From Gammaproteobacteria bacterium (GTDB lineage Bacteria; Pseudomonadota; Gammaproteobacteria; JAADHQ01): 49,418 nt of DNA. Below, in pieces: positions 31,080 through 49,418 of the stretch. Every line of letters begins with the position of its first letter. Within the stretch, counting starts at the first letter, position 1. Under the pieces are notes generated by a model, which searched no databases, had not been told where the DNA came from, and was given only the letters and a program-made list of their open reading frames with translations. Location of the stretch: assembly GCA_013151795.1 (NCBI GenBank), contig JAADHQ010000052.1, positions 7,565-56,982 on the forward strand. Direction: 5' to 3'. A program made the translations under genes and the position numbers.

Positions 31080-31168
31080 GTATTTTTTGAATCCAGTGAT
31101 GGTGAAAAGATGTTAATCTGGCAGAATCCTAGTATATAGATATAGTGACAAAAAACGGAAATTAAAGC

Positions 31169-32675: not shown

Positions 32676-32716
32676 TGTTCTGCCTTCCCTGATCTAGAAT
32701 AATTCACTGAAAAAAA

Positions 32717-33385
32717 ATGACTAAACTCCAGTTTATAGAAAAGCCCGGGTATCGCGAGCGGCAGTTGCAGCGGCGATTTAATAATCCGTTATTTTCTGTG
32801 TCACAACAAATAGTCAGTCAGTCGCAGCTGGATGCCGCACGTCAGCAAGATAAAGAAGAAGTGGTTGTTTTTATCGAAGCCCTGCAGTCGCTATTGATGG
32901 AGGTTGGGTCTTTTTCTGGCATGGAAGAAACGGACAAGATCCTCGAAACCAAAGAACGTGCAGATAAACTCTATGAGCAATGTGCAGGGCTGACCGGTGA
33001 CCATAGTCGTGAGAGTGAAGGACTGTTGAAGCTAAATGAAGCCATTATGAAAAGTATCCGGTCTGCTGCAGGAGATGACCCGCTGGCAATTGAAGAATTA
33101 AGTCGCGAGCAACAAGCTCGGGAGATGCACCTCCGGTTGCTTGAATACCCACTCGTTGTGGACATGCTAAGAGCGGATAATGGCATAGAAGCGGATGAAT
33201 TACTGCCCACGATACTCTCTGAGAATGACGAATCAATTCATATAGCATTGAGTCTTTTTGATGCACCGCAGCGTGAGGTTCTGGCAGAAGAAGCTGATCG
33301 CTTGAAGCAGGATTTGCAGTCGCGTGGAGCCCTCAGCGAGTCGTTAGAAGCCAGGTTCAGCGCGATGACTTCCGCGCCACAATAG
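32717..33385 (+). CDS. Acidic, helix-rich hypothetical protein
   Basis: 222-aa ORF located 41 nt after the previous gene and followed by a hairpin terminator. No family recognised. Confidence 0.5.
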   Translation: MTKLQFIEKPGYRERQLQRRFNNPLFSVSQQIVSQSQLDAARQQDKEEVVVFIEALQSLLMEVGSFSGMEETDKILETKERADKLYEQCAGLTGDHSRESEGLLKLNEAIMKSIRSAAGDDPLAIEELSREQQAREMHLRLLEYPLVVDMLRADNGIEADELLPTILSENDESIHIALSLFDAPQREVLAEEADRLKQDLQSRGALSESLEARFSAMTSAPQ

Positions 33386-33420
33386 GTGGCTGGGTATAGA
33401 AGCCACCTCATTTCGTTTTC
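33385..33420 (+). terminator. Rho-independent terminator
   Basis: GGTGGCT (33385-33391) pairs with AGCCACC (33401-33407), followed by a T-rich tail. Confidence 0.55.
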
Positions 33421-33672
33421 TTAAAACATCCCCCCGAGTTTATTGGCAGAATATAGTTATTTGCTAATATTCCAGCGAATTATCCAGCCTTTCAGGCATT
33501 AAAGTTTAGTGTGAATTGACCGATATATGCTTAAAATGTTTAGATATTTTTCATAATAAGACTATAATTATCGGTGTGTAATACCCTGATTTTGTAAGGT
33601 AATATTTTTTCGCAAGTTATATAAATAATAAACTGTATTAATCACAAAAAATTAGAAATATAAGGAAAAGTT

Positions 33673-35895
33673 ATGGTGCAGCACATATGCAGTTATAGAA
33701 AACCGGGCGTTATTTTATTGTCCTGTTTGTTAGTCTGGTTTTCGCAAGTTAGCGCAGATGTGGGTGACAGTTTAGTCGTTAGCTCAGATGGCAGCCGATT
33801 ACGCAGTCTACCGTCAACTCGTGGTGTTGTTTTACAGAAACTAAAACGAGGTGATGCAGTAATTGAAATCCTGCGGAAGAAAAAATGGATTAATGTCAGC
33901 ATTCAGGGGCAAGGTATTAACGGATGGATATTTCATAAAAGCGTAAAGCCATTAGTACAGGATGCCAAAAGACTACAGTTAGCAAAAAAAATACAGAAAA
34001 AAACAAGTGGTATCAGTCATGGTTTGAAATTAAGTCTGGCAGAACTCGGCTATAAAAATGGTGTGCTGTTTGAAGGTTCTGCAGCTAATCATGCTCGACA
34101 ATTGTATTTTCAGGTGCCTCAGGATATGCCAACGAAGCGAGGCCTGCTTCGTATTCATTATCGTTTTTCACCCTTGTTGGAGGAACACTCCAATATGCGA
34201 ATTTTTGTAAATGATTCGCCCAGAAAGGTTGTTCGACTCAAGGGCAATTCTCATACCGGCTGGCTTTCTGTAAAACTGAATCGCGCAGATTTAAAAAAAC
34301 GTTTTGTGCAGATCGGCATCAAGAGTGCCATGTTGATTTCCAAAGACCGCTGTTTTGATGAGCGGGTTGGCGGTGCCTATTTACAGATTTTGCCAGATAC
34401 ATCCATAAACTGGGACCTGGGTAATAAAATAACCAGTATACGTAGTTACTGGCAGTTGTTGCCAGCAAAGGTAGTAGTGAGCCTGCCAAAGGGTGAGTTG
34501 AATGCCGAATTATTTCGTAATGCTTTGGGTTTGACGAAACAATTAATACGTAGTGGCCGTGAGGTTCGTTTTACACGTTTACCGAAGATGGGTGATATTG
34601 TGGTAGCGCCACGAGAAAATGTAAGCGCGTGGTTAAACGCAGAATACAAGGATCTGACGGTCGCTAACCTGGGTCAGGCTGGCAAGGATAACAACCTTGT
34701 ATTGATTAACTTACCGGACAGACAATTCCTTGCTGTATGGGGAACACATGACCAGCAGTCACTGAGTTTTCTTTCAGATTACTGGCGCAGTCTGGCAGCC
34801 AGTAGTGGCTACAAGGTTCATAGTGGGTCAGGGCCAGGAGAGCTGACTGAAGACAGTTATGTAATGAAATTAAAAGACCTCGGGATGAATACAGCCGCAA
34901 TTGAAATGGCAAGGAAGGCATCATGGGACACTACAATTAACCCGTCTCAATTACCACCAGGCCACCGATTAAACAAGGTCAGGGTGCGACTAATTGCTGC
35001 ACCGAGTACAACAGACAAGCCGGTTATGTTTTACAGTTACCTTAATGGAGTATTAATCAAGGCAGTACGGCTTGAAGATACAGGTGAGACACAGGATATA
35101 ATACTTTCTTTGCCGCAAGGGCAAATGGAGCGAACCAATAATCTTAATTTTGTTGCACAGCGGGACATATCTGCACTTGATATGGGTTGTACAGGTGAGC
35201 CTATGCGGTTCCCTATACAGATTAAACCGGATAGTGAAATAGAAACCATTCTTGATGATACCGTGCCAGAGCGATTTGCAAATTTACCTGCTTACTTCGC
35301 CAAAGGGTTTGATGTTTATCTGCCTGACTCGTATTTGCAGCAACCAGAAAGATCACTGAGTTTCCTTGCCTCATTTATGAATGATATGGATTTGCCTTTG
35401 CGGTCAGATCGATTACGTTTTTATCAGCCAAAAGACAAGATCGAACCAGGCAAACCTTTTATATTGTTAGGCCGGGCACAAACCGCGTTTGATAAACAGA
35501 GTGTTTACCTGGATAAGGGGCGTATTGATGTTATTAACCAACAGGGTAATGTGTTGCTTGCAGTAGATGCCTTGCCCAAGGTTAGTATTGCCCAGATTGT
35601 ACGGTCGAATGATGCCTATGGCTTGTGGTTAATACCGCCCGAGTCAGGGAAATTGGCTCGCATCAGTGACATGCATCTGAGCCAGGATGATGTAGCGTTC
35701 GCCGATAAGAATGGCGTTTTGTTAACGCTGGATAGCTCGCAGCCGGGTTTATCACGCGTAGCCTACCCTGATAATGTTGGCTGGTTTGAATTATTTGGTG
35801 AATACCGGTTCTGGTATTTTGCGATTGCATGGTTGTTGTTAACCAGCTTGATAATATATTTGTATCGTTTATCCAAGTCACACCGTAAAAACTGA
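33673..35895 (+). CDS. BcsB-like periplasmic synthase subunit with an N-terminal SH3b-like domain and a C-terminal TM anchor
   Basis: Signal peptide and SH3b-like LRSLPSTRGVVLQKLKRGDAV...WINV..GWI. LSLAELGY...LYFQVP...LRIHYRFSPLL...SNMRIFVND resembles the BcsB N-terminus. A single C-terminal TM (FWYFAIAWLLLTSLIIYLY) matches BcsB topology. Confidence 0.6.
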   Translation: MVQHICSYRKPGVILLSCLLVWFSQVSADVGDSLVVSSDGSRLRSLPSTRGVVLQKLKRGDAVIEILRKKKWINVSIQGQGINGWIFHKSVKPLVQDAKRLQLAKKIQKKTSGISHGLKLSLAELGYKNGVLFEGSAANHARQLYFQVPQDMPTKRGLLRIHYRFSPLLEEHSNMRIFVNDSPRKVVRLKGNSHTGWLSVKLNRADLKKRFVQIGIKSAMLISKDRCFDERVGGAYLQILPDTSINWDLGNKITSIRSYWQLLPAKVVVSLPKGELNAELFRNALGLTKQLIRSGREVRFTRLPKMGDIVVAPRENVSAWLNAEYKDLTVANLGQAGKDNNLVLINLPDRQFLAVWGTHDQQSLSFLSDYWRSLAASSGYKVHSGSGPGELTEDSYVMKLKDLGMNTAAIEMARKASWDTTINPSQLPPGHRLNKVRVRLIAAPSTTDKPVMFYSYLNGVLIKAVRLEDTGETQDIILSLPQGQMERTNNLNFVAQRDISALDMGCTGEPMRFPIQIKPDSEIETILDDTVPERFANLPAYFAKGFDVYLPDSYLQQPERSLSFLASFMNDMDLPLRSDRLRFYQPKDKIEPGKPFILLGRAQTAFDKQSVYLDKGRIDVINQQGNVLLAVDALPKVSIAQIVRSNDAYGLWLIPPESGKLARISDMHLSQDDVAFADKNGVLLTLDSSQPGLSRVAYPDNVGWFELFGEYRFWYFAIAWLLLTSLIIYLYRLSKSHRKN

Positions 35896-35947
35896 TTGAA
35901 TATAAAATTCAGCAGTGATGATAAGCAAACGGTAACGGGAGCATAGT

Positions 35948-37840
35948 GTGAACAGAGATGGGCGCGACATAGATGATGTTAAACACATCCCGTTGGGCGA
36001 GTTGCTGATTTCAGCTGGCGTGCTGGACAAAGATCATTTACAACAAGCATTATTAATACAAAAGGAATGGGGAACCCGGCTGGGAGATATTCTGCTGGCC
36101 AAGGGTTGGGTACGTGCACTTGATTTTTATCAGGTATTGGCAGACCACTACGAATTGCCTTTTATTAATCTGATGGAAGAGTCAGTTGATAACCGGCTAT
36201 TAAATGAATCTGATATTGGCATGTATGCTGAACACCTTATTTTACCCTGGAGAGAAAAGGGTGGAAGATTAACTGTAGTGATGGCTGATCCAGGTCCGGA
36301 AGCTATGGCCTTTGCATCTCAGCATTTCGGTAAAGATATTGATTTTGCAGTGACGTCGAAGTTCGACATCATGTGGATGTTGCAGGAAAATAATAATTCA
36401 TTCTTAAGTCATCAGGCAGTCTATGCACTGTCAGACAATGATATTGAAATGTCAGCTCGTCAGGTTTTTACTGGCAGGCAGTTAATTGTTATCTATTCTT
36501 TAATGACATTTTTTCTGTTGGCGTTAACAATGTATCCTATCGGTACATTAGTTACAGTGAATTTTATTATAGCTGTATTTCTTTTGGTTAATTTTGGGTT
36601 ACGTGCTTTTTTAACCTGGGTGGGTGGCGACCGCCATATAGACATCAAGGTTACAGACAATCAGGTTAGCATATTAGACGACAAGGAATTGCCGACCTAT
36701 ACCATTCTTGTACCCATGTACAAAGAGCCTGAAGTTATACAATACCTTGCCAGTTCTTTACGTAAACTTGATTATCCTTTATCAAAGCTGGATATAAAAT
36801 TAATTCTGGAAGAGGATGACGATGAGACAATCGAGGCGGCGAAAAAACTGGGTCTCGAAGGTATTTTCGAAATTATACGTGTCCCGGATTCTCTACCGAA
36901 AACAAAACCTAAAGCCTGTAACTATGCCCTGCATTTTGCGCGTGGTGAATATGTAACTATTTATGATGCAGAGGACAGGCCGGAACCAGACCAGCTAAAA
37001 AAAGCGGTCGTGGCATTCAGGGCTGCACCCGATAACACTGTTTGCATACAGGCCCGGCTTAATTATTTTAATGCCAATGAAAACTGGCTAACCCGCATGT
37101 TTACGCTGGAATATTCATTATGGTTTGATTTTTATCTGCCTGCACTCGAAGCACTTAAAATACCTATCCCGCTTGGGGGCACATCCAATCATTTTAAAAT
37201 GGATGTTCTGCGCGAGGTAGGTGCATGGGACCCTTTTAATGTGACCGAAGATGCCGACCTGGGTGTAAGAATTACACAAATGGGATACCGGGTAGGCGTT
37301 GTAAATTCCACAACCTTTGAAGAGGCGAACAGTCGATACGGTAACTGGATCAGGCAACGTTCACGTTGGATAAAAGGGTACATGCAAACCTACCTCGTGC
37401 ACATGCGGAGTCCGATTAAATTATATGCCAGCCTGGGTCATGTGGGTTTCTGGGGGTTTCAATTTTTCATCGGTGGGGCAGTGCTGAGCACTCTGCTTGC
37501 TCCACTTCTGTACGCTATGTATATCATGTGGCTAATAACAGATACACATGCTTACGATATAGTATTTCCACCATTGGTCTTATATATCAGCCTGATTAAT
37601 TTACTGGTGGGAAATGGTTATCTTATATATCTGTCAATGCTGGGGGCATTTAAACGGCATCTGTATTCATTGATTCCGTTTGGTCTGACCATGCCATTTT
37701 ACTGGTTGATGATGTCAGTGGCCGCATACAAGGCACTATGGCAATTAATACACAATCCGTTTTATTGGGAAAAAACATTGCATGGCATAACTAATTATAA
37801 TTCCGATGAGACAGAAGAAAAGGCCAAAGATGTCACCTAA
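35948..37840 (+). CDS. Processive family-2 glycosyltransferase (synthase) with an N-terminal MshEN/T2SSE_N c-di-GMP-binding-type domain
   Basis: GTG start 6 nt after GGGAG. Residues 15-67 form a tandem 24-aa MshEN motif. After that come 2 TM segments, the GT2 core (VPMYKE, YDAED, VTEDADLG, QRSRWIKG), 3-4 C-terminal TM segments and WEKTLHG. No PilZ domain. Confidence 0.85.
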   Translation: MNRDGRDIDDVKHIPLGELLISAGVLDKDHLQQALLIQKEWGTRLGDILLAKGWVRALDFYQVLADHYELPFINLMEESVDNRLLNESDIGMYAEHLILPWREKGGRLTVVMADPGPEAMAFASQHFGKDIDFAVTSKFDIMWMLQENNNSFLSHQAVYALSDNDIEMSARQVFTGRQLIVIYSLMTFFLLALTMYPIGTLVTVNFIIAVFLLVNFGLRAFLTWVGGDRHIDIKVTDNQVSILDDKELPTYTILVPMYKEPEVIQYLASSLRKLDYPLSKLDIKLILEEDDDETIEAAKKLGLEGIFEIIRVPDSLPKTKPKACNYALHFARGEYVTIYDAEDRPEPDQLKKAVVAFRAAPDNTVCIQARLNYFNANENWLTRMFTLEYSLWFDFYLPALEALKIPIPLGGTSNHFKMDVLREVGAWDPFNVTEDADLGVRITQMGYRVGVVNSTTFEEANSRYGNWIRQRSRWIKGYMQTYLVHMRSPIKLYASLGHVGFWGFQFFIGGAVLSTLLAPLLYAMYIMWLITDTHAYDIVFPPLVLYISLINLLVGNGYLIYLSMLGAFKRHLYSLIPFGLTMPFYWLMMSVAAYKALWQLIHNPFYWEKTLHGITNYNSDETEEKAKDVT

Positions 37841-39335
37841 AGTTAATCGGCTGGAATTGTTTCTTATTTTTATGGCAGTTACCTTGTTGCTGAGCCTGTG
37901 TAGCATCTGGTTGTTGTCGCATAATTATGTCAATGAATTTGCACTGAGCAGATGGGCTAAAGTATTGTCCGTACTGGATTCTCCAGAGACCCGGATAGAA
38001 CATCTGGGGCTTATATATCCTCATTTTCCTGTTTATGTCCTGATGCCATTTTATTACCTGCCTGGTCTTGATTCCGGAGCCGCACCATTTTTTGCCTCTG
38101 TTGTTGTTGGCGCAATATTAATTGGTATCTGGAATTATCATCTGGCCAGAAAGCAATACAGCTTGTCTATACGACTTGCGATGATTTTGCTTGTTGTTAG
38201 TCACCCGTATTTCCTGTGGGGGATAACGACGGGGGCACAGCATGCACTTAGTTTATTGATGTTTTACTGGTTGTATATGGCATTGGTAAGGCTGGTGAAT
38301 GTTCAGGATGTACGTTCATTTATTATGATCGGTCTGGTACTTGCGATTTATTTTTTTATTGATGAAAGAACCTTCTATTTATTTATGGCATTGTTGCCAC
38401 TCATTTCAATTATTGCCCCCAAACGTATGCTCAGAGAGTCTACGACCAGTGTCTATTTAATAATAGCCGCACCGTTGGCGGTTTCTGTCGCATCATGGGC
38501 CTATTTGAACTGGATATTTCATAATGATGCCAGTTTGTTTTTAAGTTCCTCCGGTTCTGCATTTCGCGGGGCATGGCAAGACACCCCTCATATTTCATGG
38601 CTTAGATCATATGGGGGCGATTTTTTTACACCCACGATTCTGACCGGGCTGCTTTCGTTAATGGCCTATCCTGTCTTGTTCTGGTTGTTGTATCACGCGA
38701 AACGACATCGAATATTACTGGGCAGTACGCTGGTATTATTGATACACCCGGTTGTGGCGTCTGGGCTGGCAACCAGTAATTATTTTCTTGAACATCCAAT
38801 GAATATGGTTTTTCTGTTTAGTGCAGGGATCATGGCAGGCATCGTATTGCTCCCAAGGGAAACAAAAAGTGCGAGAATGAGCTTGCTGGCATTGCTTGCA
38901 CTGAGTAGTGCGATGGCCTGGTTTAGTTTTTCCTGGTTTGCCACGGCCGATATGCAACGCTGGCAGTCTGCGGTAATGGGCAAGTCGTTAAAAGACAGTA
39001 GCCCTGGTGATGTTATTCTAGGGCAGTGGCTGGATAAAAACAGGCAGGTGACATTGCTTGATGACAAGACAGCCTATCGGGTTATAGTGGCAAGAGGTGA
39101 TGCAAAGAATCTGATATTGCCATTTTCATCCAAGTTCAAAACTAATATGAAAAACAAGTGGCCAAAGATAGCTCAACTGGCAGTATCGGAGCCTGGTTAC
39201 ATACATAATAAACAGGATCACCTGAATCAGCGTTTTCCTGATTTGTATTATAAGGGAATGCCGGGTTATAAGCTGGTATATGACAATCAGCATTGGCGCG
39301 TATATCGACAGATAATATCTGGAGCAAATCAATGA
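37806..39335 (+). CDS. Polytopic inner-membrane protein (about 10 or more TM segments plus a C-terminal soluble domain), function unknown
   Basis: Overlaps the GT2 gene. The alternative ATG at 37830 gives an 11-nt overlap. The hydrophobic repeats and topology recall GT-C/ArnT-like proteins, but no motif could be assigned. Confidence 0.7.
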   Translation: MRQKKRPKMSPKVNRLELFLIFMAVTLLLSLCSIWLLSHNYVNEFALSRWAKVLSVLDSPETRIEHLGLIYPHFPVYVLMPFYYLPGLDSGAAPFFASVVVGAILIGIWNYHLARKQYSLSIRLAMILLVVSHPYFLWGITTGAQHALSLLMFYWLYMALVRLVNVQDVRSFIMIGLVLAIYFFIDERTFYLFMALLPLISIIAPKRMLRESTTSVYLIIAAPLAVSVASWAYLNWIFHNDASLFLSSSGSAFRGAWQDTPHISWLRSYGGDFFTPTILTGLLSLMAYPVLFWLLYHAKRHRILLGSTLVLLIHPVVASGLATSNYFLEHPMNMVFLFSAGIMAGIVLLPRETKSARMSLLALLALSSAMAWFSFSWFATADMQRWQSAVMGKSLKDSSPGDVILGQWLDKNRQVTLLDDKTAYRVIVARGDAKNLILPFSSKFKTNMKNKWPKIAQLAVSEPGYIHNKQDHLNQRFPDLYYKGMPGYKLVYDNQHWRVYRQIISGANQ

Positions 39336-40330
39336 TGCGTTGTTTGACAATATGCTTGTTGATGTTTATGCCTGTCATGGTAAGCCATGCCAATATTGCA
39401 GATGACTATTATCAGGGCGTTAATTATCTGCAGACCCCTAATGTATCATTGAAATCTTTTACATCAATGCAATCCTTGCGCAAGATAAAAGAGGCGGGTG
39501 CTAATACCGTTGCACTTGTTGTGTTTTTACAGCAGGATTCAGCAACATCAAAATATTTAAAACCATCTTCTGCTGTCACTGAACATCAGTTAATTCAGGC
39601 GATCGCAGATGCACATGACATTGGTCTGAAGGTTATTCTTAAACCACAAATACTGGTCACAAATTCATGGGCGGGTGAAATTAATTTACCTGACACCGAT
39701 GATTGGCAGCAATGGTATAACAGTTATCAGAAGTTTATCGTGCGATACGCACAAATTGCACAAACCTATAATGTTGAAATTCTTGTGTTGGGTACAGAAT
39801 TACGATATGCAGCCAGGCAACCGCAGTTTCAACAGTTAATAACAGCGGTGCGTAAAAAATATCGTGGAGAGATAAGTTATGCCGCTCATGGTATCGCCGG
39901 GCTTGAGCGTTTTCCATTTTGGGATTTGCTGGATTCAGCCAGCGTGACTTTATACCCGTCCCTGGGCAAGGACTGGGATGAGAACAAGGCTGGTAAAGTC
40001 ATTTCAGAAAAAGTAAAAGCACTGCAGCTGGTTGCAAGCAAAATAGGTAAACCCTTCTGGATTGCGGAAATCGGTATATCATCTGCACAAGGGAGTCATC
40101 AGCACCCCTGGCTCGTTACAAACAATCAGCAAGGCGTACCGGATGCAGAATTACAGGCAAAGGTACTGGGCCTGTGGTTGAAGAATTTACAGCAGAGATG
40201 GGTAAGTGGAGTGATGGTATGGTGCTGGTTCAGTGATCACGACATGGGTGGCTTGACCGATACCGGGTTTACCATTCAGAACAAGGCAGCTGAAACGGTA
40301 GTCAGTTGTTACTGGAAAAAACAATGTTAA
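39332..40330 (+). CDS. Exported TIM-barrel glycoside hydrolase (clan GH-A-like)
   Basis: ATGA overlap with the upstream gene and GGAG 7 nt before the ATG. Signal peptide ending SHA. LVLGTEL and FWIAEIG are candidate acid/base and nucleophile strands. Confidence 0.6.
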   Translation: MMRCLTICLLMFMPVMVSHANIADDYYQGVNYLQTPNVSLKSFTSMQSLRKIKEAGANTVALVVFLQQDSATSKYLKPSSAVTEHQLIQAIADAHDIGLKVILKPQILVTNSWAGEINLPDTDDWQQWYNSYQKFIVRYAQIAQTYNVEILVLGTELRYAARQPQFQQLITAVRKKYRGEISYAAHGIAGLERFPFWDLLDSASVTLYPSLGKDWDENKAGKVISEKVKALQLVASKIGKPFWIAEIGISSAQGSHQHPWLVTNNQQGVPDAELQAKVLGLWLKNLQQRWVSGVMVWCWFSDHDMGGLTDTGFTIQNKAAETVVSCYWKKQC

Positions 40331-41298
40331 TGGTGAGTATTTTTGAGAAACAATTGTTTCAGGCGCGGGATAACGTGACCGTCGATATTTTCTGGTACAG
40401 GCGCGCCGAGTAAATAAAGAATGGTTGGCATGGTGTCATAAATATAGACGCCCTTGCCATGTTTGGTTTCGGGTTTTATACCCGGGTTAATCGCCATCCA
40501 GGGAATAGTGAAATCCTCTGGACGCTGATACCAGTGAGTTTTGTCTTTACCGCCATGATCGGCAGTGATGATGAGCAAGGTATCGTTGGCGTGTTTACTG
40601 TTTTTGATGGTGTTGTAGATCTGGCCTATAGCCTTGTCAGCAGCCGGAATGGCCTGGTTGAGATATTCATTGCTCATCCAGCCATATTGGTGGCCTGTTT
40701 CGTCAGGTTCCCTGATATGAATAAAGGTCATATTGAAAAACTGTTTGGGCCAGACATGAGAAAATTTTTCAGATAACTCATTTGCATGGGTTTGGTGGTA
40801 TTTAATGTCTTGTTGACCTGGGCCATAGATATAGTCCAGGGAGTCAGGGTGAAACAGGAAGCCGAGTTTTTTCTTGGAAAAAAAGGCAGCATTTGTTTTT
40901 CCGGTTTTTTTCAAAATCTGAAAGACAGTAGCAAAAGGTACGTGACCGGGCAGAGGTTTATTAGTGGTGATCTTGTGTCGCGAGTAATCCAGGCCCGTTA
41001 GCATAGAGGTGTGGCTCGGTAGTGTAACGGATCGCTGGATAGTTTGCGCTTCCGGGTAATAAAGATTACTACGGCTTAGTTCAAAAAGGTTTTTTGCATT
41101 GCTTCTGTTAATCGCATCAGGCCGCAAGCCATCGATACTGACAAGGACAATATGTTTGATAGCCGGGTTTTTAACAGGTGAAGGGCCAAACGGGATATTG
41201 GTACAGGACGTCAGCTGGGTTAAAGCGAAGACAGTTATAAGTAACCGAATCAGGTTACTTAAAGGTATTTTATGATGAAATGATTTTGATAAATTCAT
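40327..41298 (-). CDS. Lipoprotein of the nucleotide pyrophosphatase/phosphodiesterase (NPP, alkaline-phosphatase superfamily) family
   Basis: Lipobox LTQLTSC. VSIDGLRPD, TLPSHTSMLTGL (catalytic Thr context) and ITADHGG. Confidence 0.8.
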   Translation of the reverse strand: MNLSKSFHHKIPLSNLIRLLITVFALTQLTSCTNIPFGPSPVKNPAIKHIVLVSIDGLRPDAINRSNAKNLFELSRSNLYYPEAQTIQRSVTLPSHTSMLTGLDYSRHKITTNKPLPGHVPFATVFQILKKTGKTNAAFFSKKKLGFLFHPDSLDYIYGPGQQDIKYHQTHANELSEKFSHVWPKQFFNMTFIHIREPDETGHQYGWMSNEYLNQAIPAADKAIGQIYNTIKNSKHANDTLLIITADHGGKDKTHWYQRPEDFTIPWMAINPGIKPETKHGKGVYIYDTMPTILYLLGAPVPENIDGHVIPRLKQLFLKNTHH

Positions 41299-41308
41299 GG
41301 TTATAGTC

Positions 41309-41330
41309 TTTACGAAAAAATTTTCGTAAA
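41309..41330. promoter_or_regulatory. Perfect 10-bp inverted repeat TTTACGAAAA-AA-TTTTCGTAAA in the divergent control region
   Basis: Read directly from the sequence. It sits 11 nt upstream of the NPP gene's ATG and about 70 nt upstream of the OMP-CotH operon. Confidence 0.4.
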
Positions 41331-41398
41331 AGATTGCTCCGATTTATACTGAATATTAGCATTATTTTTAAGTGCACCGTAAGAGCTGGATTAATAAT

Positions 41399-42241
41399 AT
41401 GTTTACCAACAATTTGAATGGCAGACCAAACGTAATGTTGCAGCAAATAGCATTGATTACAGTTTTGTTTATAGTGACCGGTTCGGCACAAGCTGGTGGT
41501 TGGTTGCGCTCTGAAGGAGAGCACCGGTACTCGGCATATCTATCCAATTCTTCATCAAACAGGTCCTGGGACAGGTATGGCAATGATACCGTGTCAGGTT
41601 GCACGTCAAACGTCACTGCATTAACGCATGAATATGAATACGGTTATTCCTATTACCGTACCTTGTTTGGCAAGGTTAATATGGCCACATCAGAATGCGG
41701 GGGTGACAAGGTCAGTGGTCTGGGCGATGTCTATCTGGGTGTCCGTGGCAGGTTAAATCTGTACAAGAACGGAAGTGCATGGGAAGCCATTCTTATAATA
41801 CCAACCGGATATGATGGACAGCGGAGTAATCGGCTGGGATATGGCGAGCTGGGTATCGAGCTGGGATTATACGGGACGACCAAATATTCAAAAAAATCGA
41901 CTTTTGCCTATGGTGGAAGCTTTCGCTTCTGGAACGGTTCACCTTCTGATCAATTCCGCACAAGGGCAAGCTGGTCATATAAGCAGAATAAACAATGGGC
42001 AATCAGAACCAGTCTGGAGGGTAACTTTTCCCTGAATAATGGTAATTCTGTAACGCCTGCTTCTATAAACGGTGATTTTGAATCAGAGTTTGATGTTATC
42101 CGTGGAAAGATAGGCCTGAGGCGTCAGATAGGCCCGAGGCTCGGGTTGACTGTCGGGTTGTACAAGAATTTGTGGGGTCGTAATGCCAGTCAGCGTCAGG
42201 GTATATATCTTAATATCGCATATGTGTGGGGTAGGTTATAA
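41399..42241 (+). CDS. Putative outer-membrane beta-barrel protein
   Basis: Signal peptide ending SAQA. Gly/Tyr/Ser-rich alternating pattern and a C-terminal strand IYLNIAYVWGRL. The start is ambiguous (GTG 41372, ATG 41399 or ATG 41435). Confidence 0.45.
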   Translation: MFTNNLNGRPNVMLQQIALITVLFIVTGSAQAGGWLRSEGEHRYSAYLSNSSSNRSWDRYGNDTVSGCTSNVTALTHEYEYGYSYYRTLFGKVNMATSECGGDKVSGLGDVYLGVRGRLNLYKNGSAWEAILIIPTGYDGQRSNRLGYGELGIELGLYGTTKYSKKSTFAYGGSFRFWNGSPSDQFRTRASWSYKQNKQWAIRTSLEGNFSLNNGNSVTPASINGDFESEFDVIRGKIGLRRQIGPRLGLTVGLYKNLWGRNASQRQGIYLNIAYVWGRL

Positions 42242-43927
42242 ATGAGCATGAGTCAAAGGAAAAAAATCGTGATATGGCTAGGCATGATTAGTAGTTTATG
42301 CTTGTGGTGGCAAACAGGTATGGCGCAGGAAACGGTCCCGGTGTTATCTGTCCACCTGGAAATGAAAGCACGTGATGCTGATGTTTTATTTAAAAAAGAT
42401 CCATATGATCGTTCAACCTTTCCTGTCAGCATGCTTGTTGACGGAAAACAATTGAATGGTCGGATTTCAGTAAAAGGAAGTTTCAGCAGAAGTTTTGATA
42501 AGAAATCACTGAAGATAAAACTTGATAAAGGCTCGAAGTGGCGTGGACAGAGGCGTATTGCCCTTAACGCTATGGCGACTGATACTTCGATGATGCGTGA
42601 ATGGCTGGCATGGGATCTGATTCACACACTAGGCATGGCAGCGCCCAAGGTGAATTATACGCAGTTATATATTAACCGGCGATACATCGGTATGTTTCTG
42701 CATATTGAGTGGATTGACCCTGGCATGCTGGCAAAATTTGGACTGGGTGACGATGGTGAATTTTTCCATCCGCTTGATAGTACCTTTTGTGGTGATCTTG
42801 GCTTGCAGTCTGTTGCCGATGTTGAACGTTGTTGGACGAAGTTATCTCCACGAGATAATGATTATTCACCGCTTAAAAAGTTAGTGAAGCAGTTGCATGA
42901 TGTGACAGCAGATGAATTTGACAGCTTCCTTGAGAAAAACTTTGATGTAGAGTCTGTTATAAACTGGATTGCCGTGAATGCGATTACCAGTAATGGTGAT
43001 ACATATAATAAAAACTATTTTATTTATTTCAGTCGAAAAAAAGGACGTTGGGTTCTTATTCCTTGGGATTACGATTTATCCTTTGGTCGAAACTGGGACG
43101 AGTTTCTTGAGTACCCGGCGAATATTCTGAATGATAACTTTCAATATTATTATCCACTTGAACTGGGGCTGCCAAACCCGTTAAAAGATAAATTATTGAA
43201 AAACCCTGTTTTGCTCGAGCGTCTCAAACAGAAACTCAGAGGTTTAATGGGGATGCCTGTGGAAGGTTATGCCGCCACGCCAGTCTGGTTCACACCCGAG
43301 GTTATGCATGACCGCATAGACGCACTAACATCTGTATTAACAGATAACCTGAATCGTGAACGCTATACAACAACGAATGCACAAAAATTACGTGAGCAGG
43401 CCAGCGCGCTGAAAGACTACGTGAGCTTTCGCTATAATTATCTTCGCAAGACAGTATTACAAGTGACAAACTGGGTTCCGGATCGTGCGAGCATTAAAGT
43501 TTCCAAGGCCGGCGAGACTGAATCGTGGGTAGACGGGTTTGGTAAAACATTGGGGACAATACAGGCTCTGAGCCTGAATCGTGCTGCAGAGATCGCTGTC
43601 GATGTAGAGCGGATGACCGTACCTGAATTCCTTCCGGAAGATACAGATGCAAGTCGATGTGTAAAAAGAACCTGGTTTCTGGTTAATAAAACGCCGTTTA
43701 GTCAGTTAAATGTAAATTTGTCGTGGCAATATTTACATGAAAATTCCAGAAATACCGAAGTTGGGAAAAATCTTGATGATGAAAGCAAATTAAATCTTTG
43801 GGTGATGGACTACGAAAAATGGAGGCAATTACCTGTAAGCATTAACAAGATTTCCAATGTGATAGAGACAAAGGGCATGGATATCAAAGCTGGCAGGTTG
43901 TATCGTTTTGTTGCTTGTCAGGAATAA
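42242..43927 (+). CDS. Exported CotH-family atypical kinase
   Basis: The start abuts the upstream stop codon. Signal peptide ending GMAQE. KKSLKIKLD and NKNYFIYF...WVLIPWDYDLSFG are typical CotH-domain motifs. Confidence 0.8.
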   Translation: MSMSQRKKIVIWLGMISSLCLWWQTGMAQETVPVLSVHLEMKARDADVLFKKDPYDRSTFPVSMLVDGKQLNGRISVKGSFSRSFDKKSLKIKLDKGSKWRGQRRIALNAMATDTSMMREWLAWDLIHTLGMAAPKVNYTQLYINRRYIGMFLHIEWIDPGMLAKFGLGDDGEFFHPLDSTFCGDLGLQSVADVERCWTKLSPRDNDYSPLKKLVKQLHDVTADEFDSFLEKNFDVESVINWIAVNAITSNGDTYNKNYFIYFSRKKGRWVLIPWDYDLSFGRNWDEFLEYPANILNDNFQYYYPLELGLPNPLKDKLLKNPVLLERLKQKLRGLMGMPVEGYAATPVWFTPEVMHDRIDALTSVLTDNLNRERYTTTNAQKLREQASALKDYVSFRYNYLRKTVLQVTNWVPDRASIKVSKAGETESWVDGFGKTLGTIQALSLNRAAEIAVDVERMTVPEFLPEDTDASRCVKRTWFLVNKTPFSQLNVNLSWQYLHENSRNTEVGKNLDDESKLNLWVMDYEKWRQLPVSINKISNVIETKGMDIKAGRLYRFVACQE

Positions 43928-43933
43928 TTTTAA

Positions 43934-45253
43934 ATGACAGCGCAAGAAAAAAAATACACGTTACTGGAAAAATTGTTACGACTGTTTACCGTTATCAAAC
44001 CCGGTGAAGGTAAGGCGGTCGTGTTATTATTGCTGCAGGCATTTATTCTTTTATTTGCATATTACCTGCTAAAGCCCGCTCGGGAATCGTTACTGTTATC
44101 TGAAAATAGCGCAGAAATACGAAGTTACGCAGTTGCTTTTCAGGCGCTGGTGCTTCTCATGCTGATGCCAGCCTATAATATTTTATTTCGTCACTATAAA
44201 CATGATCGCAGCAGGATATATATCTGGGTTACCCTGTTTTTTATTTGTAATTTATTATTATTTTATGTGCTGGGCGCTGCAGAAATAAAACTCGGCATTG
44301 TATTTTTTATCTGGCTAGGTGTGTTTAACGTTATGGTGGTTGCGCAGTTCTGGGCATTTTGCGCAGACCTGTATAATGTGGAAAGCGGCCAGAGATTATT
44401 TGTTGTTATTGCTGTCGGGGCATCACTGGGTGCGTTACTGGGAGCAAGTTTTTCCAAACAGGCAATTCAATATACCGGTCCGTTAGGGCTGATGTTACTG
44501 GCCGTTGTTTTACTCTGTATTACGATTATTCTTGGTTTGTTTGCCAGTAGAAATCTACCTGTACAGGATCGTAGCCACAGCCAGTTATTCAAGGGCAAGT
44601 CAAAGTGGATTCCCGGCAGTTTTCATCTGGTGTTTTCAGATCGTTATTTATTGTTGATAGCGACGTTTGTTGTGTTGTTGAACTGGATAAACAGCACGGG
44701 CGAATTCATACTGGCAAAAATGGTCGTTAGTCATGCAGAGGGTTTAATCGCTGCAGGTAGTGAAATCAGCAAAGGTAACCTGATCGGCAGTTTTTATGGT
44801 GACTTCTATACATGGGTAAACCTGTTCAGCCTGCTGTTTCAATTGTTACTGGTATCCAGAATATTTAAATACTTCGGGGTGAGATTTGCGTTGTACATCT
44901 TGCCTGTAATCAGCCTGATTGGTTATGGCCTGATTGTTTTTATACCTGTGTTCAGCATTATAAGGCTGGTAAAGATTCTTGAGAACAGTGTAGATTATTC
45001 TATTCAGACAACAACACGTCATACTTTATTTTTGCCGGTCAATACGGCTGCTAAATATGAAGGCAAAACTGTTATTGATACATTTTTCTGGCGTTTCGGA
45101 GACTTGATTCAGGCCGGTGTTATCTATGCAGGCACAACCTGGCTAAGTATGGAGGTATACCAGTTTGCGATACTGAATATGATACTTGCGGTAGTCTGGA
45201 TAGGCGTTGTTGTCGGCATTACCCGCGAGCATAAAAAATTATCTGCGGATTAA
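43934..45253 (+). CDS. MFS-type transporter resembling the TLC (ATP:ADP antiporter / Npt) family
   Basis: Starts 6 nt after cotH. About 11-12 TM segments. The N-terminal segment GEGKAVVLLLLQAFILLFAYYLLKPARESLLL resembles the TLC-family N-terminus. This assignment needs HMM confirmation. Confidence 0.5.
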   Translation: MTAQEKKYTLLEKLLRLFTVIKPGEGKAVVLLLLQAFILLFAYYLLKPARESLLLSENSAEIRSYAVAFQALVLLMLMPAYNILFRHYKHDRSRIYIWVTLFFICNLLLFYVLGAAEIKLGIVFFIWLGVFNVMVVAQFWAFCADLYNVESGQRLFVVIAVGASLGALLGASFSKQAIQYTGPLGLMLLAVVLLCITIILGLFASRNLPVQDRSHSQLFKGKSKWIPGSFHLVFSDRYLLLIATFVVLLNWINSTGEFILAKMVVSHAEGLIAAGSEISKGNLIGSFYGDFYTWVNLFSLLFQLLLVSRIFKYFGVRFALYILPVISLIGYGLIVFIPVFSIIRLVKILENSVDYSIQTTTRHTLFLPVNTAAKYEGKTVIDTFFWRFGDLIQAGVIYAGTTWLSMEVYQFAILNMILAVVWIGVVVGITREHKKLSAD

Positions 45254-45275
45254 GGTATTTTTATATGAATCTTTG

Positions 45276-45473
45276 TTAGTAGTGCGGCGGCGGGGTTTCC
45301 TCTGATGCATGTGCAATAATAGAAACCTCCTGAACCTGGCTGCGTATACTTTTAAGTTCCAGTTGTAGTTTAATGATCAACTCTTCCTGTTTTAAAATAG
45401 TGTGTGTCAGCTCATCAATTGCAGACTCCTGATGAGTAATACGAATTTCCAGATCTGTGATACGGTTTTCCAT
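45276..45473 (-). CDS. slyX: SlyX-family coiled-coil protein
   Basis: 65 aa. MENRITDLEIRITHQESAIDELT is typical of SlyX. Confidence 0.8.
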   Translation of the reverse strand: MENRITDLEIRITHQESAIDELTHTILKQEELIIKLQLELKSIRSQVQEVSIIAHASEETPPPHY

Positions 45474-45493
45474 GTTAATTTCTCATGTTCAGG

Positions 45494-46289
45494 CTAAAAA
45501 TAAATATCATAGCGTGTATTTTTACTTTCAATAGTAGCGGCAGGTTTTAGTTCACCTAAAGGCGGTGCAACTTTTGGGCGTTTAACAACCACACGTTTTG
45601 GTTTGCAGTTTATCGCGTTTTCCAATACCTGCACAGCATCGTCCGTCCTTGCCGGCAATATCATGAAAATAGCGCATTTCCTTTTTTACCAGTGCAGATT
45701 TATTTCGTGCAGGATACATGGGGTCGAGGTAAATAGTATCGGGAGTTTGCGATGCAAGTTGCTGTAAATAATTAATGGCATTTTCGTTGTGTAATCTCAT
45801 ATTGTTTGTTATCAAGCCGCTGATATCGGGATCATTCAATGCTCGATGTAAACCATTTTGTAATAGCTCATAAATAACCGGGTTACGTTCCAGCATTGTA
45901 ACGTGGCAGCCCAGCGTTGCAAAAACAAAACTGTCGCGTCCAAGTCCGGCTGTTGTATCCAGTATTACCGGATTGAACCCGGGTTTTATGCCAGCAGCAC
46001 GGGCGAGAGGCTGGTTTCTTCCTCCCCCGAACAGTCTTCGGTGAGCGGCCTTGCCCCGGGTGAAATCGATAGTGACTGGCCCCGGCGATGGCTTACCTGT
46101 TTTTTGAAGTTTACAGATATAACCCGGTGCGTGTTCATGTGATTCATATATTAATAAATATTCAGCATGTCCCAGTGCCGATAACAGAGGGATATTATAC
46201 AGGCATGATTTTTCCTGCACTAAAACCTGCAAGGATGATTGTTCGGTAAACAGGGCAATATTCGACTGATTAAGTGTTGTGTGAGTCAT
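45494..46289 (-). pseudogene. rsmJ: 16S rRNA (guanine1516-N2)-methyltransferase RsmJ, reading frame broken by +1 nt near 45640-45647
   Basis: The N-terminal frame has AAHRRLFGGGR, TAGLGRDSF, YLDPMYP and KKEMRYF, then runs into nonsense and a stop at 45582. The conserved C-terminus DDAVQVLENA..KRVVVKRPKVAPPL...RYDIYF-stop continues in another frame to 45494. The total length of 796 nt is not a multiple of 3. Confidence 0.75.
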
Positions 46290-46388
46290 TAATGAAATCA
46301 GTGTCCGGTGAGAGCTATTTACAAGTAACAGAAGTGTGTGTAATCCTGTGGATGATTGCAACTCTAATTCAGGCAGTGAAGGCTGGTT

Positions 46389-46934
46389 ATGGCAGTAAGG
46401 CATCTTGGAAGATTAATTCCCCGGGTTAATACATCGGCGTTCATTGATGAAAGTGCGCAGGTGATAGGCGACGTAGAACTTGGGCAGGATAGTTCTGTCT
46501 GGCCCATGGCCGTTATTCGTGGTGATATTCAAAAAATTATTATTGGTCAAAATACGAATATTCAGGATGGCTGTGTTTTGCATGTAACACATGACAGTCA
46601 GTATCAACCAGGAGGCTGTGAACTTCGAGTAGGTGATTATGTGACAGTGGGTCACGGGGTGATTTTACATGGTTGCACAATTAATGATCATTGTTTGATT
46701 GGTATGGGCAGTACAATTATGGATAATGCGGTACTTGAAGAAAATGTGATGTTGGCAGCAGGTAGCCTGGTAACTCCCGGTAAGGTGTTGAAAAGCGGGT
46801 ATTTATATGTGGGTAGTCCTGCAAAAGCCAAACGATTATTAACCAGAGAAGAGATTGAATACTTTGAATATGCAGCTAATCACTATGTAAAATTGAAAAA
46901 CCAGTACAAATCAGGCGATAATACAACCAAATAA
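46389..46934 (+). CDS. Gamma-carbonic-anhydrase-like hexapeptide-repeat protein (YrdA family)
   Basis: 181 aa. VIGDVELGQDSSVWPMAVIRGD, NIQDGCVLHVT and GYLYVGSPAK are collinear with YrdA. Confidence 0.85.
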   Translation: MAVRHLGRLIPRVNTSAFIDESAQVIGDVELGQDSSVWPMAVIRGDIQKIIIGQNTNIQDGCVLHVTHDSQYQPGGCELRVGDYVTVGHGVILHGCTINDHCLIGMGSTIMDNAVLEENVMLAAGSLVTPGKVLKSGYLYVGSPAKAKRLLTREEIEYFEYAANHYVKLKNQYKSGDNTTK

Positions 46935-47359: not shown

Positions 47360-48196
47360 TTAATTCTTTATTTTTCCCCGTAGCGCAGCAATAACTGTTT
47401 TTGTTTCAGGTCTTATTCCTCTCCATATATAAAAAGACTCGGCCGCTTGTTCAACCAGCATACCTAATCCATCCATACATGATTCTGCACCATGCTGTTT
47501 ACCCCACACCATAAAGCTGGTGGGTTCACTGGCATACATCATATCGTACAAGTGGGTTGACTCATTAATGCAGTCAACCGGAACAGGAGGGACGTCACCC
47601 TGCAGGCTTGCAGCTGTTCCGTTAATGATCAGATCAAATGTTTGTTCTGATAATTGCTCAAAACCGGATGCTTTAATATTGCCGAAGTCAGAAAACAAAT
47701 CAGCCAGGTCAATAGCCTTGTTATGAGTGCGATTGGCAATGGTGACAGACTGTGGTTGTTGTTCCAGTATGGGAAGCAGTACGCCGCGTACAGCACCGCC
47801 TGCACCAATAATCAGTATGCGTTGATTTTGTAAATTTATTAAATGATTTTTTAAAAGGTCGGTTACGAGACCAATACCATCAGTGTTGTCACCAGTATAT
47901 TGTCCATTATTAATAGTAATAGTATTGACCGCGCCGGCAAGCTCGGCACGTTGGCTGCGTTCGTTTACAAGATCCCATGCCTGTTGTTTAAAGGGTACGG
48001 TAATATTCAACCCTTTGCCGTTTTCCTGGGCAAAGTTATTAACACTTTTATTAAAGTTGTCCAGATCAACCAGTATGGCTTCGTATGACAGGTTCTGCTT
48101 GCATTGTTCAGCAAATAACTTGTGAATGTCGGGGGATTTACTATGCGCAATGGGATTGCCCATCACTGCATAGCGATCAGGTTTAGTACTATTCAT
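47360..48196 (-). CDS. aroE: Shikimate dehydrogenase
   Basis: ATG at 48196 (MNSTKPDRYAVMGNPIAHSKSP), NITVPFK and IIGAGGAVRG. 278 aa. The ORF track merges it with the upstream gene only because that gene is frameshifted. Confidence 0.9.
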   Translation of the reverse strand: MNSTKPDRYAVMGNPIAHSKSPDIHKLFAEQCKQNLSYEAILVDLDNFNKSVNNFAQENGKGLNITVPFKQQAWDLVNERSQRAELAGAVNTITINNGQYTGDNTDGIGLVTDLLKNHLINLQNQRILIIGAGGAVRGVLLPILEQQPQSVTIANRTHNKAIDLADLFSDFGNIKASGFEQLSEQTFDLIINGTAASLQGDVPPVPVDCINESTHLYDMMYASEPTSFMVWGKQHGAESCMDGLGMLVEQAAESFYIWRGIRPETKTVIAALRGKIKN

Positions 48197-48198
48197 TA

Positions 48199-49418
48199 TT
48201 AGCCTGAAAAAATGCCTTTGAGCATGAAGAAAATTATAATAGCAAGGCCAGCACCTGCAGGCAGTGTTACGATCCATGACATAAAGATAGTGCGTACAAC
48301 GCGCATATTGACTGCCCCCATGCCTCGTGCAATGCCGACACCGAGTACAGCACCAACCAGGGTATGCGTTGTTGAAATAGGCAAGCCTGTTCCTGATGCA
48401 ATTACAACGGTTGTAGCCGCTGCCAGTGTAGCGGCAAAACCCCGTGGGTGTCAGGTCAGTAATGCCTTTACCGACAGTTGCGATAACGCGTTTACCATAC
48501 ATAACCAGACCGGCAATAATACCGACACCACCAATGGCCAGTATCCATGCAGGTAAAACCGCTTTTTGTGAGAGCTCCCCGGATTCGGCGATGCTAACAA
48601 CAGCCGCCATTGGCCCAACAGCATTGGCAACGTCATTAGAGCCGTGTGCAAATGCCATCGCGCAGGCTGTTACCATCATGAGTATGCCGAATATTTTTTC
48701 TACATTGGTGTAATGAAAGTCGCGGTCAGCATTTGGGTCTATTTTTATTTTGCCGATGGCATAATAACCAAAAAACATGGTTATAAAGCCAAAAATTGCT
48801 GCCAGTGAATAATTTTGTAATGCACTTGTTTCAAGGCCGATGTGTTTCAGGCCTTTGAATAAGGTTACCAGTGTTACAATAAAGCCAACCACAAACATAT
48901 ACATGGGAACATAACGTTTGGCATTTTTTATTGGATCAGGTGTCAGGAATATCAGTTTTTGTACGCTCATGAATAACAGAAAAGCAAGTACGCCAGACAT
49001 AATCGGTGAAACAATCCAGCTCGCAACAATAGTGCCAACCTTGGGCCAATGGATGGCGTCCAGGCCTATGCCGACAGCTGCAAAACCAACAATGGCGCCG
49101 ACGATAGAATGTGTGGTTGAAACCGGCCAGCCTTTTTTTGAAGCGATTAGTAACCAGATCCCTGCAGCCAGTAATGAAGACAGCATACCGTAAATAACAA
49201 GATCCGGACTGCCTGTCAGCATGTCGTTATCAAGTATACCTTTACGAATGGTCTTGGTTACTTCACCACCGGCGAGATAGGCACCGGCGAATTCAAATAT
49301 TGCGGCAATGATGATTGCCTGTTTTAATGTTAGCGCCTTACTGCCAACGGATGTTGCCATGGCATTGGCAACATCGTTTGCGCCAATTCCCCATGCCATA
49401 AACAAACCAAAGATAATT
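48199..49418 (-). pseudogene. PiT-family inorganic phosphate transporter. The 5' end lies beyond the window, and a +1 frameshift sits in a G4T4 run (plus strand AAAACCCC, 48436-48443).
   Basis: The N-terminal frame has GANDVANAM twice and reads up to GITDLTPT. The conserved continuation GFAATLAAATTVVIASGTGLPISTTHTLVGAVLGVG...stop (48199) is in another frame. Confidence 0.8.

Follow-up and report, generated by a model that had tools for sequence, protein, structure and literature searches.

Gene content of the locus and its identity as an sfz-type cluster

The stretch of DNA analyzed here, referred to as the window, comprises 49,418 nt of a contig (GenBank accession number JAADHQ010000052.1, positions 7,565 to 56,982) from the gammaproteobacterial metagenome-assembled genome (MAG) GCA_013151795.1. 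An initial annotation, made from the sequence alone, had described an operon for an outer-membrane protein (OMP), an exported CotH-family kinase and a TLC-like nucleotide carrier, divergent from a gene for an NPP-type phosphodiesterase lipoprotein, and had suggested a self-supplied extracytoplasmic phosphorylation system. All four open reading frames (ORFs) were found where it had placed them. These genes, the exopolysaccharide (EPS) cluster to which they belong and the pairing of CotH with the carrier in other genomes are the subject of this report.

The NPP/alkaline phosphatase (AP)-superfamily lipoprotein gene (40327-41298, minus strand; 323 aa; Pfam Phosphodiest E value, 2.3e−25) starts 100 nt from the annotated OMP gene, and the divergent intergenic region (41299-41398) ends at the public OMP gene start. 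The OMP, an outer-membrane beta-barrel homologous to Sfz5, is encoded at 41399-42241 (plus strand; 280 aa from the ATG of public gene call P0241), with an alternative GTG start upstream at position 41372. The next gene encodes a Sec-exported CotH-family kinase of the Sfz6 type that lacks SH3 repeats and carries a C-terminal beta-sandwich (42242-43927, plus strand; 561 aa; PF08757 E value, 1.1e−61). It is followed by the gene for a divergent inner-membrane carrier of the TLC/NTT (ATP:ADP antiporter) family (43934-45253, plus strand; 439 aa; PF03219 E value, 4.8e−12). As had been reported, the three plus-strand genes are nearly contiguous, with gaps of 0 nt (OMP-CotH) and 6 nt (CotH-TLC); the first becomes 6 nt if CotH is taken from its second ATG, as in public call P0121 (559 aa). 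The OMP-CotH-TLC order was seen again in many phyla when related loci were compared, and the gene arrangement is far beyond chance. Promoter and terminator scanning of positions 32000-46500 gave counts no higher than in shuffled sequence and was uninformative, and an Rfam scan of the whole window returned no match, the NPP-OMP intergenic region included.

The conserved cluster begins further upstream with a gene for a BcsB-like periplasmic or membrane subunit (33673-35895, plus strand; Pfam BcsB E value, 2.2e−13), for which colinear homologues of 23 to 60% identity were found in related loci (L005, L062, L075, L086, L100 and others; L numbers denote the loci compared here). A cyclic di-GMP (c-di-GMP)-binding MshEN domain fused to a GT2 synthase follows (35948-37840, plus strand; Pfam MshEN and Glyco_trans_2_3 E values, 5e−13 and 8e−23), and an NCBIfam c-di-GMP motif domain was matched in the same protein above that model's cutoff (E value, 2.2e−15). 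MshEN is N-terminal to GT2 in this protein, whereas the NfrB model NF008411 has the two the other way round; the domain aligned to positions 480 to 614 of that model, which there lie C-terminal to the glycosyltransferase domain. Next are genes for a polytopic membrane protein with ∼11 hydrophobic segments and a C-terminal soluble domain (37806-39335, plus strand), which gave no Pfam match and nothing credible at E values of up to 5, and for an exported GH113-family glycoside hydrolase (39293-40330, plus strand; Pfam GH113 E value, 1.3e−47). The hydrolase gene is convergent with the NPP gene, and the two overlap by 4 nt. ORFs further upstream (29034-33385), encoding an M3 peptidase, an APH kinase and a 222-aa product, were considered as cluster members and rejected, as they were conserved in no related locus.

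This gene order corresponds to that of the sfz cluster, which was proposed for twisted-stalk formation in iron-oxidizing Zetaproteobacteria (Koeksoy et al. 2021, PMC8250860). There, a BcsB-like Sfz1 is followed by Sfz2 (a T2SS-E/MshEN N-domain with GT2), Sfz3 (∼500 aa), the glycoside hydrolase Sfz4, Sfz5 (∼310 aa) and Sfz6 (SH3 repeats with CotH), and downstream of Sfz6 lie an “ATP-ADP antiporter” and then a phosphomannose isomerase (PMC8250860). BLASTP comparison with the M. ferrooxydans PV-1 proteins, taken from the supplement of that study, gave 60, 39, 36, 36 and 36% identity for the window counterparts of Sfz2, Sfz3, Sfz4, Sfz5 and Sfz6, respectively, with E values from 4e−20 (Sfz5) to 0; that for Sfz3 was 1e−115, and CotH aligned with the C-terminal 560 aa of Sfz6 (E value, 3e−109). 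The correspondence to Sfz1 was drawn at the level of the Pfam family (BcsB). NCBIfam holds no model matching the OMP, CotH, carrier, GH113 or Sfz3-like protein. Given the colinear order and the 36 to 60% identity to M. ferrooxydans Sfz2 to Sfz6, window positions 33673-45253 are identified by sequence as an sfz-type, synthase-dependent EPS cluster that is predicted to be gated by c-di-GMP. Homologous clusters were also present in Desulfobulbaceae/Desulfurivibrionaceae, Nitrospirota, Nitrospinota, Azoarcus, Thiohalorhabdus and many Gammaproteobacteria (L005, L062, L161, L165, L166 and others).

The initial annotation knew of no described system linking these components, and in this it was mistaken, as the gene linkage had been published with the sfz cluster and its neighborhood (PMC8250860). 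On function its statement was right: Sfz5, Sfz6 and the antiporter are given none in the published sfz work, later literature has used sfz purely as a marker, and our literature search found no paper joining CotH functionally to a TLC carrier or to periplasmic ATP. The trio had also been said to abut an EPS cluster directly. The adjacency is real; the trio is nevertheless not a neighbor of that cluster, being its conserved accessory distal module.

GH113 is a beta-mannanase family. The polymer is probably mannose-based rather than cellulose-like, as judged from the GH113 gene, the phosphomannose isomerase neighbor in Zetaproteobacteria and ManC in locus L163, where the gene for this GDP-mannose pyrophosphorylase/phosphomannose isomerase (L163:19739-21223, minus strand) stands at the head of the synthase operon.

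Features of the kinase, the barrel, the carrier and the NPP lipoprotein

Pfam profiles upheld all three family assignments made initially (CotH, TLC and Phosphodiest). CotH covered the whole PF08757 profile (positions 1 to 322 of 322) with 209.6 bits against a cutoff of 23.8, and phmmer aligned it with Bacillus cereus CotH (PDB 5JD9; E value, 9e−25). Foldseek matched its AlphaFold2 model (pLDDT, 86.9) to 5JDA (E value, 3.8e−23; target TM score, 0.84) at ∼22% identity. In Bacillus subtilis CotH, D228 is the catalytic and D251 the metal-binding aspartate, and the protein is inactivated by D228Q and D251A (PMC7821199). These residues correspond to D224 and D247 in B. cereus CotH and, by alignment to 5JD9, to D253 and D276 in the window protein, where D253, N258, D276 and D278 were invariant across 22 CotH orthologues from several phyla. 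With these residues intact and the fold matching 5JDA, the protein is proposed, from sequence and model, to be a catalytically competent ATP-dependent phosphotransferase.

As had also been predicted, CotH carries an export signal. Its N terminus shows basic residues, a 15-residue hydrophobic core and a GMA|QE cleavage site typical of Sec signals, and a hydropathy scan found no transmembrane-length hydrophobic segment in the protein. The kinase domain follows the signal peptide immediately, with no N-terminal SH3 repeats, whereas SH3 domains (PF08239) are present in the CotH proteins of some relatives. The AlphaFold2 model places the extra beta-sandwich at residues ∼415 to 560, a domain for which no credible Pfam family was identified at E values of up to 5. 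Four cysteines (C183, C197, C473 and C559) are invariant in Sfz6-type CotH proteins, and in Sfz5-type barrels two are nearly so (C56 and C88, numbered from the ATG at position 41435). The conserved cysteines of both proteins are consistent with disulfides formed in an oxidizing, extracytoplasmic compartment.

The OMP gave no match in Pfam (E values of up to 5 were tried) or NCBIfam. It has an AQA signal peptidase site, and AlphaFold2 predicted a 12-strand barrel from an 18-sequence alignment (pLDDT, 83.2). Using Foldseek, this model resembled the COG4313 channel 4RL8 (TM score, 0.71 to 0.73) and the FapF amyloid secretion channel 5O65/5O68 (TM score, 0.62 to 0.68). The OMP gene lay upstream of CotH in nearly every related locus.

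The carrier passed the PF03219 threshold (45.9 bits against a cutoff of 21), with its best stretch confined to the C-terminal part, and the major facilitator superfamily profile MFS_1 stayed below its own. As a single sequence it aligned weakly, yet over the full length, with the solved “ADP,ATP carrier protein 1” (9J3N; E value, 1.2e−4). A 23-sequence profile strengthened this match to 2.4e−17 and also identified the chloroplast carrier 9J3J (E value, 7e−12), spanning profile positions 6 to 438. The motifs FWxFA(N/A)(E/D) and KxxGKxxID are common to the window protein and the solved NTTs, its N terminus is basic, and a crude hydropathy scan counted at least 10 clear hydrophobic segments, against the 12 transmembrane helices and cytoplasmic N terminus typical of NTTs. 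Mutagenesis of plastid NTT1 is reported to have marked conserved charged residues within the membrane (K155, E245, E385 and K527). Judged from these alignments, the carrier is a genuine if very divergent TLC-family member, whose substrate cannot be read from its sequence.

The NPP protein scored 90.4 bits with the PF01663 profile, and its basic and hydrophobic N terminus is followed by an L-T-S-C lipobox. Alignment with Xanthomonas NPP (2GSN; E value, 7.7e−10) retained the threonine nucleophile and the metal ligands (D56, T92, D199/H203 and D247/H248); the C terminus is ∼100 aa shorter than in solved NPPs. Among the related loci, the gene was limited to three lineages, namely, the close relatives of the window in L081 to L083 and L100 (58 to 62% identity), L039/L162, and L094/L163. 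In all three it is transcribed away from the OMP gene, and the four-gene unit of NPP and OMP-CotH-TLC behaves as a separable module. The assignment to a lipoprotein NPP family and the divergent placement over 100 nt stand, while a general role in the system does not; on this distribution, NPP is read as having been inserted, in particular lineages, between the genes for the hydrolase and the OMP.

Linkage of CotH and the carrier in other genomes

A CotH profile scan of metagenomes returned 80 loci, whose CotH proteins were collapsed into lineages at 80% identity. Those of at least 34% identity were taken as Sfz6 type, and 23 such lineages had enough flanking sequence to be judged. A Pfam-TLC gene lay inside the cluster in 17 of these 23 de-duplicated lineages and in none of the 13 distant CotH lineages (28 to 33% identity). 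It was mostly found directly downstream of CotH; in one lineage (L112, L116) it preceded the BcsB gene, and once it was on the opposite strand. In L161, L162 and L163, the CotH stop codon and the TLC start codon share a 4-nt overlap. L161 is the cultured Thiohalorhabdus methylotrophus, and an Azoarcus MAG also carries a CotH-TLC locus. At least two TLC subfamilies, sharing 24 to 28% identity, occupy the CotH-linked slot, with HMM scores of 400 to 690 bits versus 105 to 133 bits. In a crude neighbor-joining tree (BLOSUM distances, no support values), the CotH-linked carriers were basal and paraphyletic to the unlinked forms.

The trio also held together where the rest of the cluster did not. 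In a Nitrospirota MAG (L165), OMP-CotH-TLC has been shifted as a block ahead of the synthase genes. In the 1.2-Mb contig L163 it forms, with the divergent NPP gene, an operon of its own that is convergent to the synthase genes and ManC, and the related MAG L162 carries the block without synthase genes nearby. In betaproteobacterial stalk-formers, Sfz5, Sfz6 and the antiporter are jointly missing (PMC8250860). Because it survives rearrangement and is lost together, OMP-CotH-TLC behaves as one evolutionary module. CotH and the carrier are likely to be functionally coupled. The initial annotation had allowed that the carrier might be an unrelated major facilitator superfamily protein, that CotH might lack catalytic residues and that the genes might not co-occur elsewhere; the carrier is of the TLC family, the residues are present, and co-occurrence is strong when counted from CotH.

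The distant CotH subfamily (L135 to L160; 28 to 33% identity) consists of proteins of ∼900 aa with C-terminal sorting domains of the type IX secretion system (T9SS), and is flanked by genes for secreted proteins of the BNR/sortilin and S15-peptidase-like kinds. At three of the loci, the start of such an unrelated T9SS-type CotH gene is overlapped or immediately preceded by an AP-superfamily gene (∼320 aa), as at L155:3091-4041 and L155:4038-5681 (plus strand), where the overlap occurs. This hints at a recurrent yet optional partnership of AP-superfamily genes with CotH.

The neighbors of the carrier were also surveyed from its own side. A carrier profile scan of a genome collection identified more than 570 relatives, of which the best 80 loci were analyzed (42 to 52% identity; Gammaproteobacteria, Acidobacteriota, Myxococcota and Desulfobulbales). 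In 35 of these 80 the carrier is a longer form of ∼540 aa with a C-terminal He_PIG Ig-like domain, convergent to genes for a secreted PPP-family phosphoesterase and a secreted ∼320-aa protein of no recognized family (for example, L012:11693-13666 and L012:13679-14647, minus strand, from the set L001 to L080). The phosphoesterase aligned with the Shewanella protein-tyrosine phosphatase 1V73/2Z72 (E value, 1e−31). The He_PIG carrier with an exported phosphoesterase is a second, undescribed pairing. Two clusters from the neighbor analysis (5 and 9) were discarded as antisense artifacts of GC-rich genes.

A possible role for the carrier in supplying an extracytoplasmic kinase

To our knowledge, the periplasm is generally taken to be free of ATP, and we know of no transporter-fed kinase there. 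The reading that best accommodates the observations above is that the carrier exports ATP to feed an extracytoplasmic CotH kinase, a reading drawn from sequence and held tentatively, at somewhat less than an even chance. The TLC protein would swap ADP from outside the inner membrane for ATP from the cytoplasm and in this way provide the phosphoryl donor. On established bioenergetic grounds, the inside-negative potential of a respiring host would drive such electrogenic ATP4−/ADP3− exchange outward, the direction it takes in mitochondria. The Sec-exported CotH would then phosphorylate a target outside the cytoplasm, which could be the polymer as it emerges or else a protein of the matrix or envelope. 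A polymer substrate is plausible by analogy with the eukaryotic secretory pathway, where some enzymes with a kinase-like fold phosphorylate glycans (Fam20B; PMC5865150); a protein substrate is no less so. The 12-strand barrel could serve as the outer-membrane passage for polymer, kinase or nucleotide, and the NPP lipoprotein, added in this lineage, may hydrolyze leaked nucleotide or phosphodiester products. What the analysis shows is the identity of the genes, an intact active site, export signals and conserved synteny; which cargo the carrier moves and in which direction, what the kinase modifies and what the OMP and NPP do are our inferences.

Several observations weigh against ATP export by the carrier on behalf of CotH. 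No TLC gene was present in the cluster in 6 of the 23 Sfz6-type CotH lineages, and in a Mariprofundales MAG examined separately none adjoined CotH. At CotH loci lacking TLC no substitute transporter was found; the cluster ends and housekeeping genes come next. The T9SS-secreted CotH proteins had neither a TLC nor a VTC partner at the 13 distant loci, and therefore a donor supply encoded alongside is not a general requirement of exported CotH proteins. The broader proposition that every exported CotH has a phosphoryl-donor exporter was accordingly rejected, as 48 ORFs at these loci included no TLC, VTC or DUF4956 gene. Co-occurrence in other genomes, which held from the CotH side, was weak from the transporter side: CotH adjoined the carrier in 4 of the best 80 carrier loci, three being full colinear seven-gene clusters and one an NPP(−)/OMP/CotH/TLC arrangement. 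The carrier clade as a whole is thus not CotH specific and has functions that do not need CotH. The window carrier is also very divergent from characterized NTTs, whose cargo includes NAD and other nucleotides; ATP in the periplasm could leak through porins; and the export model is built, for carrier and kinase alike, on comparative genomics.

NTT homologues are widespread in free-living bacteria, where their function is unknown, and those characterized carry ATP/ADP, other nucleotides or NAD (Major et al., PMC5381601). The carrier and CotH might be coupled through a cargo other than ATP, such as another nucleotide or anionic cofactor (GTP, NAD+, a nucleotide sugar like GDP-mannose, or a dinucleotide). 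CotH would then modify the polymer by some other reaction that uses a nucleotide, for instance nucleotidylylation or the transfer of a phospho-sugar. The diversity of characterized NTT/TLC substrates, which include NAD and all nucleoside triphosphates (PMC5381601), the distance of the window carrier from the characterized clade and the ties of the cluster to GDP-mannose metabolism all speak for such a cargo. We nonetheless consider it unlikely, as the sole CotH proteins characterized biochemically are ATP-dependent protein kinases and the ATP/Mg-binding residues are invariant in the family to which the window CotH belongs.

Less likely again is that the carrier works inward, salvaging nucleotides or organophosphates released by periplasmic phosphoesterases (NPP here, PPP-family enzymes elsewhere), and that its link to CotH is indirect, through ADP/AMP recovery or co-regulation in biofilms. 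All characterized bacterial NTTs are importers, NPP-type enzymes yield nucleoside monophosphates, and the secreted metallophosphoesterase lying beside 35 of the 80 nearest carrier homologues would suit this role. Import would, however, leave unexplained why a kinase and not a hydrolase is the tightest, oldest and most rearrangement-resistant partner, and NPP is missing from most CotH-TLC loci. Free-living prototrophs have little need to import ATP, and the membrane potential opposes uptake of ATP4− against ADP3−. Finally, although the long SH3 repeat arrays of zetaproteobacterial Sfz6, typical of wall or matrix binding, and the extra beta-sandwich of the window protein would suit a matrix protein with a structural or adhesive rather than an enzymatic role, such as has been suggested for fungal CotH invasins, with the carrier adjacent through shared regulation only, this is very improbable given catalytic and metal-binding residues invariant across phyla, which would not be expected in a pseudoenzyme, and a coupling to a nucleotide carrier family that survives operon shuffling.

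ATP export to an extracytoplasmic kinase thus remains the preferred account of the pairing. More speculatively, and with rather more doubt, the trio as a whole may constitute a dedicated extracytoplasmic phosphorylation system of free-living diderms, in which an NTT running in reverse exports ATP, CotH tunes by phosphorylation the charge and mineral binding of a mannose-based polymer or of matrix proteins, and a FapF/COG4313-like barrel lets kinase, nucleotide or polymer cross the outer membrane. If so, the three unexplained genes of sfz would form a modification module that could control polymer charge and hence mineral binding.

As a mechanism, a transporter-fed kinase is a new idea; the comparative data lend it strength, and it can be approached by experiment. 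The conserved pairing of an ATP/ADP-carrier homologue with an exported kinase that keeps its catalytic residues makes the assumption of an ATP-free periplasm directly testable. Should the proposal hold, the NTT homologues of free-living bacteria would gain their first physiological role, and this would be the first instance of ATP supplied by a transporter being used periplasmically or on the cell surface, much as the Fam20 kinases operate in the Golgi. What NTT/TLC proteins do in free-living bacteria has been left open in the literature (PMC5381601); the CotH pairing offers a concrete hypothesis and a cultured host, Thiohalorhabdus methylotrophus.

Other features of the window

A sensor protein with a dCache-HAMP-PAS-GGDEF-EAL arrangement is encoded at positions 9597-12341 (plus strand) and is a candidate source of c-di-GMP for the MshEN-GT2 synthase. 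Together with a class I adenylate cyclase gene (5178-8015, minus strand), it lies 21 to 28 kb upstream of the cluster.

Downstream, a 681-aa ORF (47360-49405, minus strand) combines a PHO4/PiT phosphate transporter, cut off at position 285 of the 350-position profile, with a full-length shikimate dehydrogenase (AroE). The stretch at the join is rich in cysteine and arginine and looks out of frame, and the fusion is probably a frameshift near position 48400, reflecting an assembly error or a pseudogene. The window also encodes a protein that strongly matches the delta-type carbonic anhydrase family (22880-23776, minus strand; PF10563 E value, 5.7e−82), a class best known from diatoms and here found in a gammaproteobacterial MAG.

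Comparison with known systems

The window cluster resembles the c-di-GMP-activated synthase systems of the Bcs/NfrB kind in its GT2 fused to a c-di-GMP receptor, its BcsB-like subunit and its periplasmic hydrolase (GH113). It has no porin of the BcsC/PgaA/AlgE type, with TPR domains and 16 to 18 strands; its sole OMP is the 12-strand, COG4313/FapF-like barrel.

The kinase shares its Pfam family, fold and catalytic and metal-binding aspartates with the spore coat kinase CotH of Bacillus (5JD9/5JDA). The Bacillus protein acts on coat proteins in the mother-cell cytoplasm and has no signal peptide, whereas the window CotH is Sec exported in a diderm. The two proteins further differ in the two conserved cysteine pairs and the extra C-terminal beta-sandwich of the window protein, and share ∼22% identity.

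With the TLC/NTT translocases of Rickettsia, Chlamydia and plastids, the carrier has in common the Pfam family, a full-length profile alignment and the FWxFA(N/A)(E/D) and KxxGKxxID motifs. It differs in its very low identity, in its length (∼440 aa versus ∼500 to 590 aa), in its free-living host and in the proposed direction, which would be export rather than import.

In Gram-positive Pel loci, the accessory genes include cotH, DUF4956 and DUF4832 and one for a polyphosphate polymerase (Whitfield et al. 2020, PMC7112168). Such loci are alike in having CotH on a synthase-dependent, c-di-GMP-related EPS operon together with a membrane-associated partner that handles phosphate (PMC7112168). In these monoderm hosts, however, the partner is a VTC-like polyphosphate polymerase and not a TLC carrier, and the loci that we examined yielded neither VTC nor DUF4956 genes.

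A further parallel is offered by the protein kinase Fam20C and the xylose kinase Fam20B, which, according to two published accounts (PMC5865150, PMC3416761), have atypical kinase folds, are topologically extracytosolic, act on secreted proteins or glycans and in some cases take part in biomineralization. The parallel is meant only as an analogy; apart from membership in the kinase superfamily we claim no homology, and the compartment and the transporter family differ. Fam20-type kinases rely on transporter-mediated import of ATP into the lumen.

With the sfz/sfb stalk-formation cluster of iron-oxidizing Zetaproteobacteria and Betaproteobacteria (PMC8250860), the window shares gene order, homologous proteins, a BcsB-like first gene and a TLC-type antiporter right after CotH. 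The host of the window is an uncultured gammaproteobacterial MAG without evidence of stalk formation, its CotH of 561 aa has no SH3 array where zetaproteobacterial Sfz6 proteins reach 1,415 to 2,270 aa, and an NPP lipoprotein gene has been inserted on the opposite strand. The sfz-type cluster is not stalk specific, because homologues of it are present in Desulfobulbales, Nitrospirota, Nitrospinota, Azoarcus and Thiohalorhabdus. Used as a marker for stalks of iron oxide, sfz may therefore over-call, given its homologues in several phyla and in organisms that do not oxidize iron. The locus described here is a gammaproteobacterial version of the known sfz-type cluster, with an inserted NPP gene and a CotH without the SH3 array.

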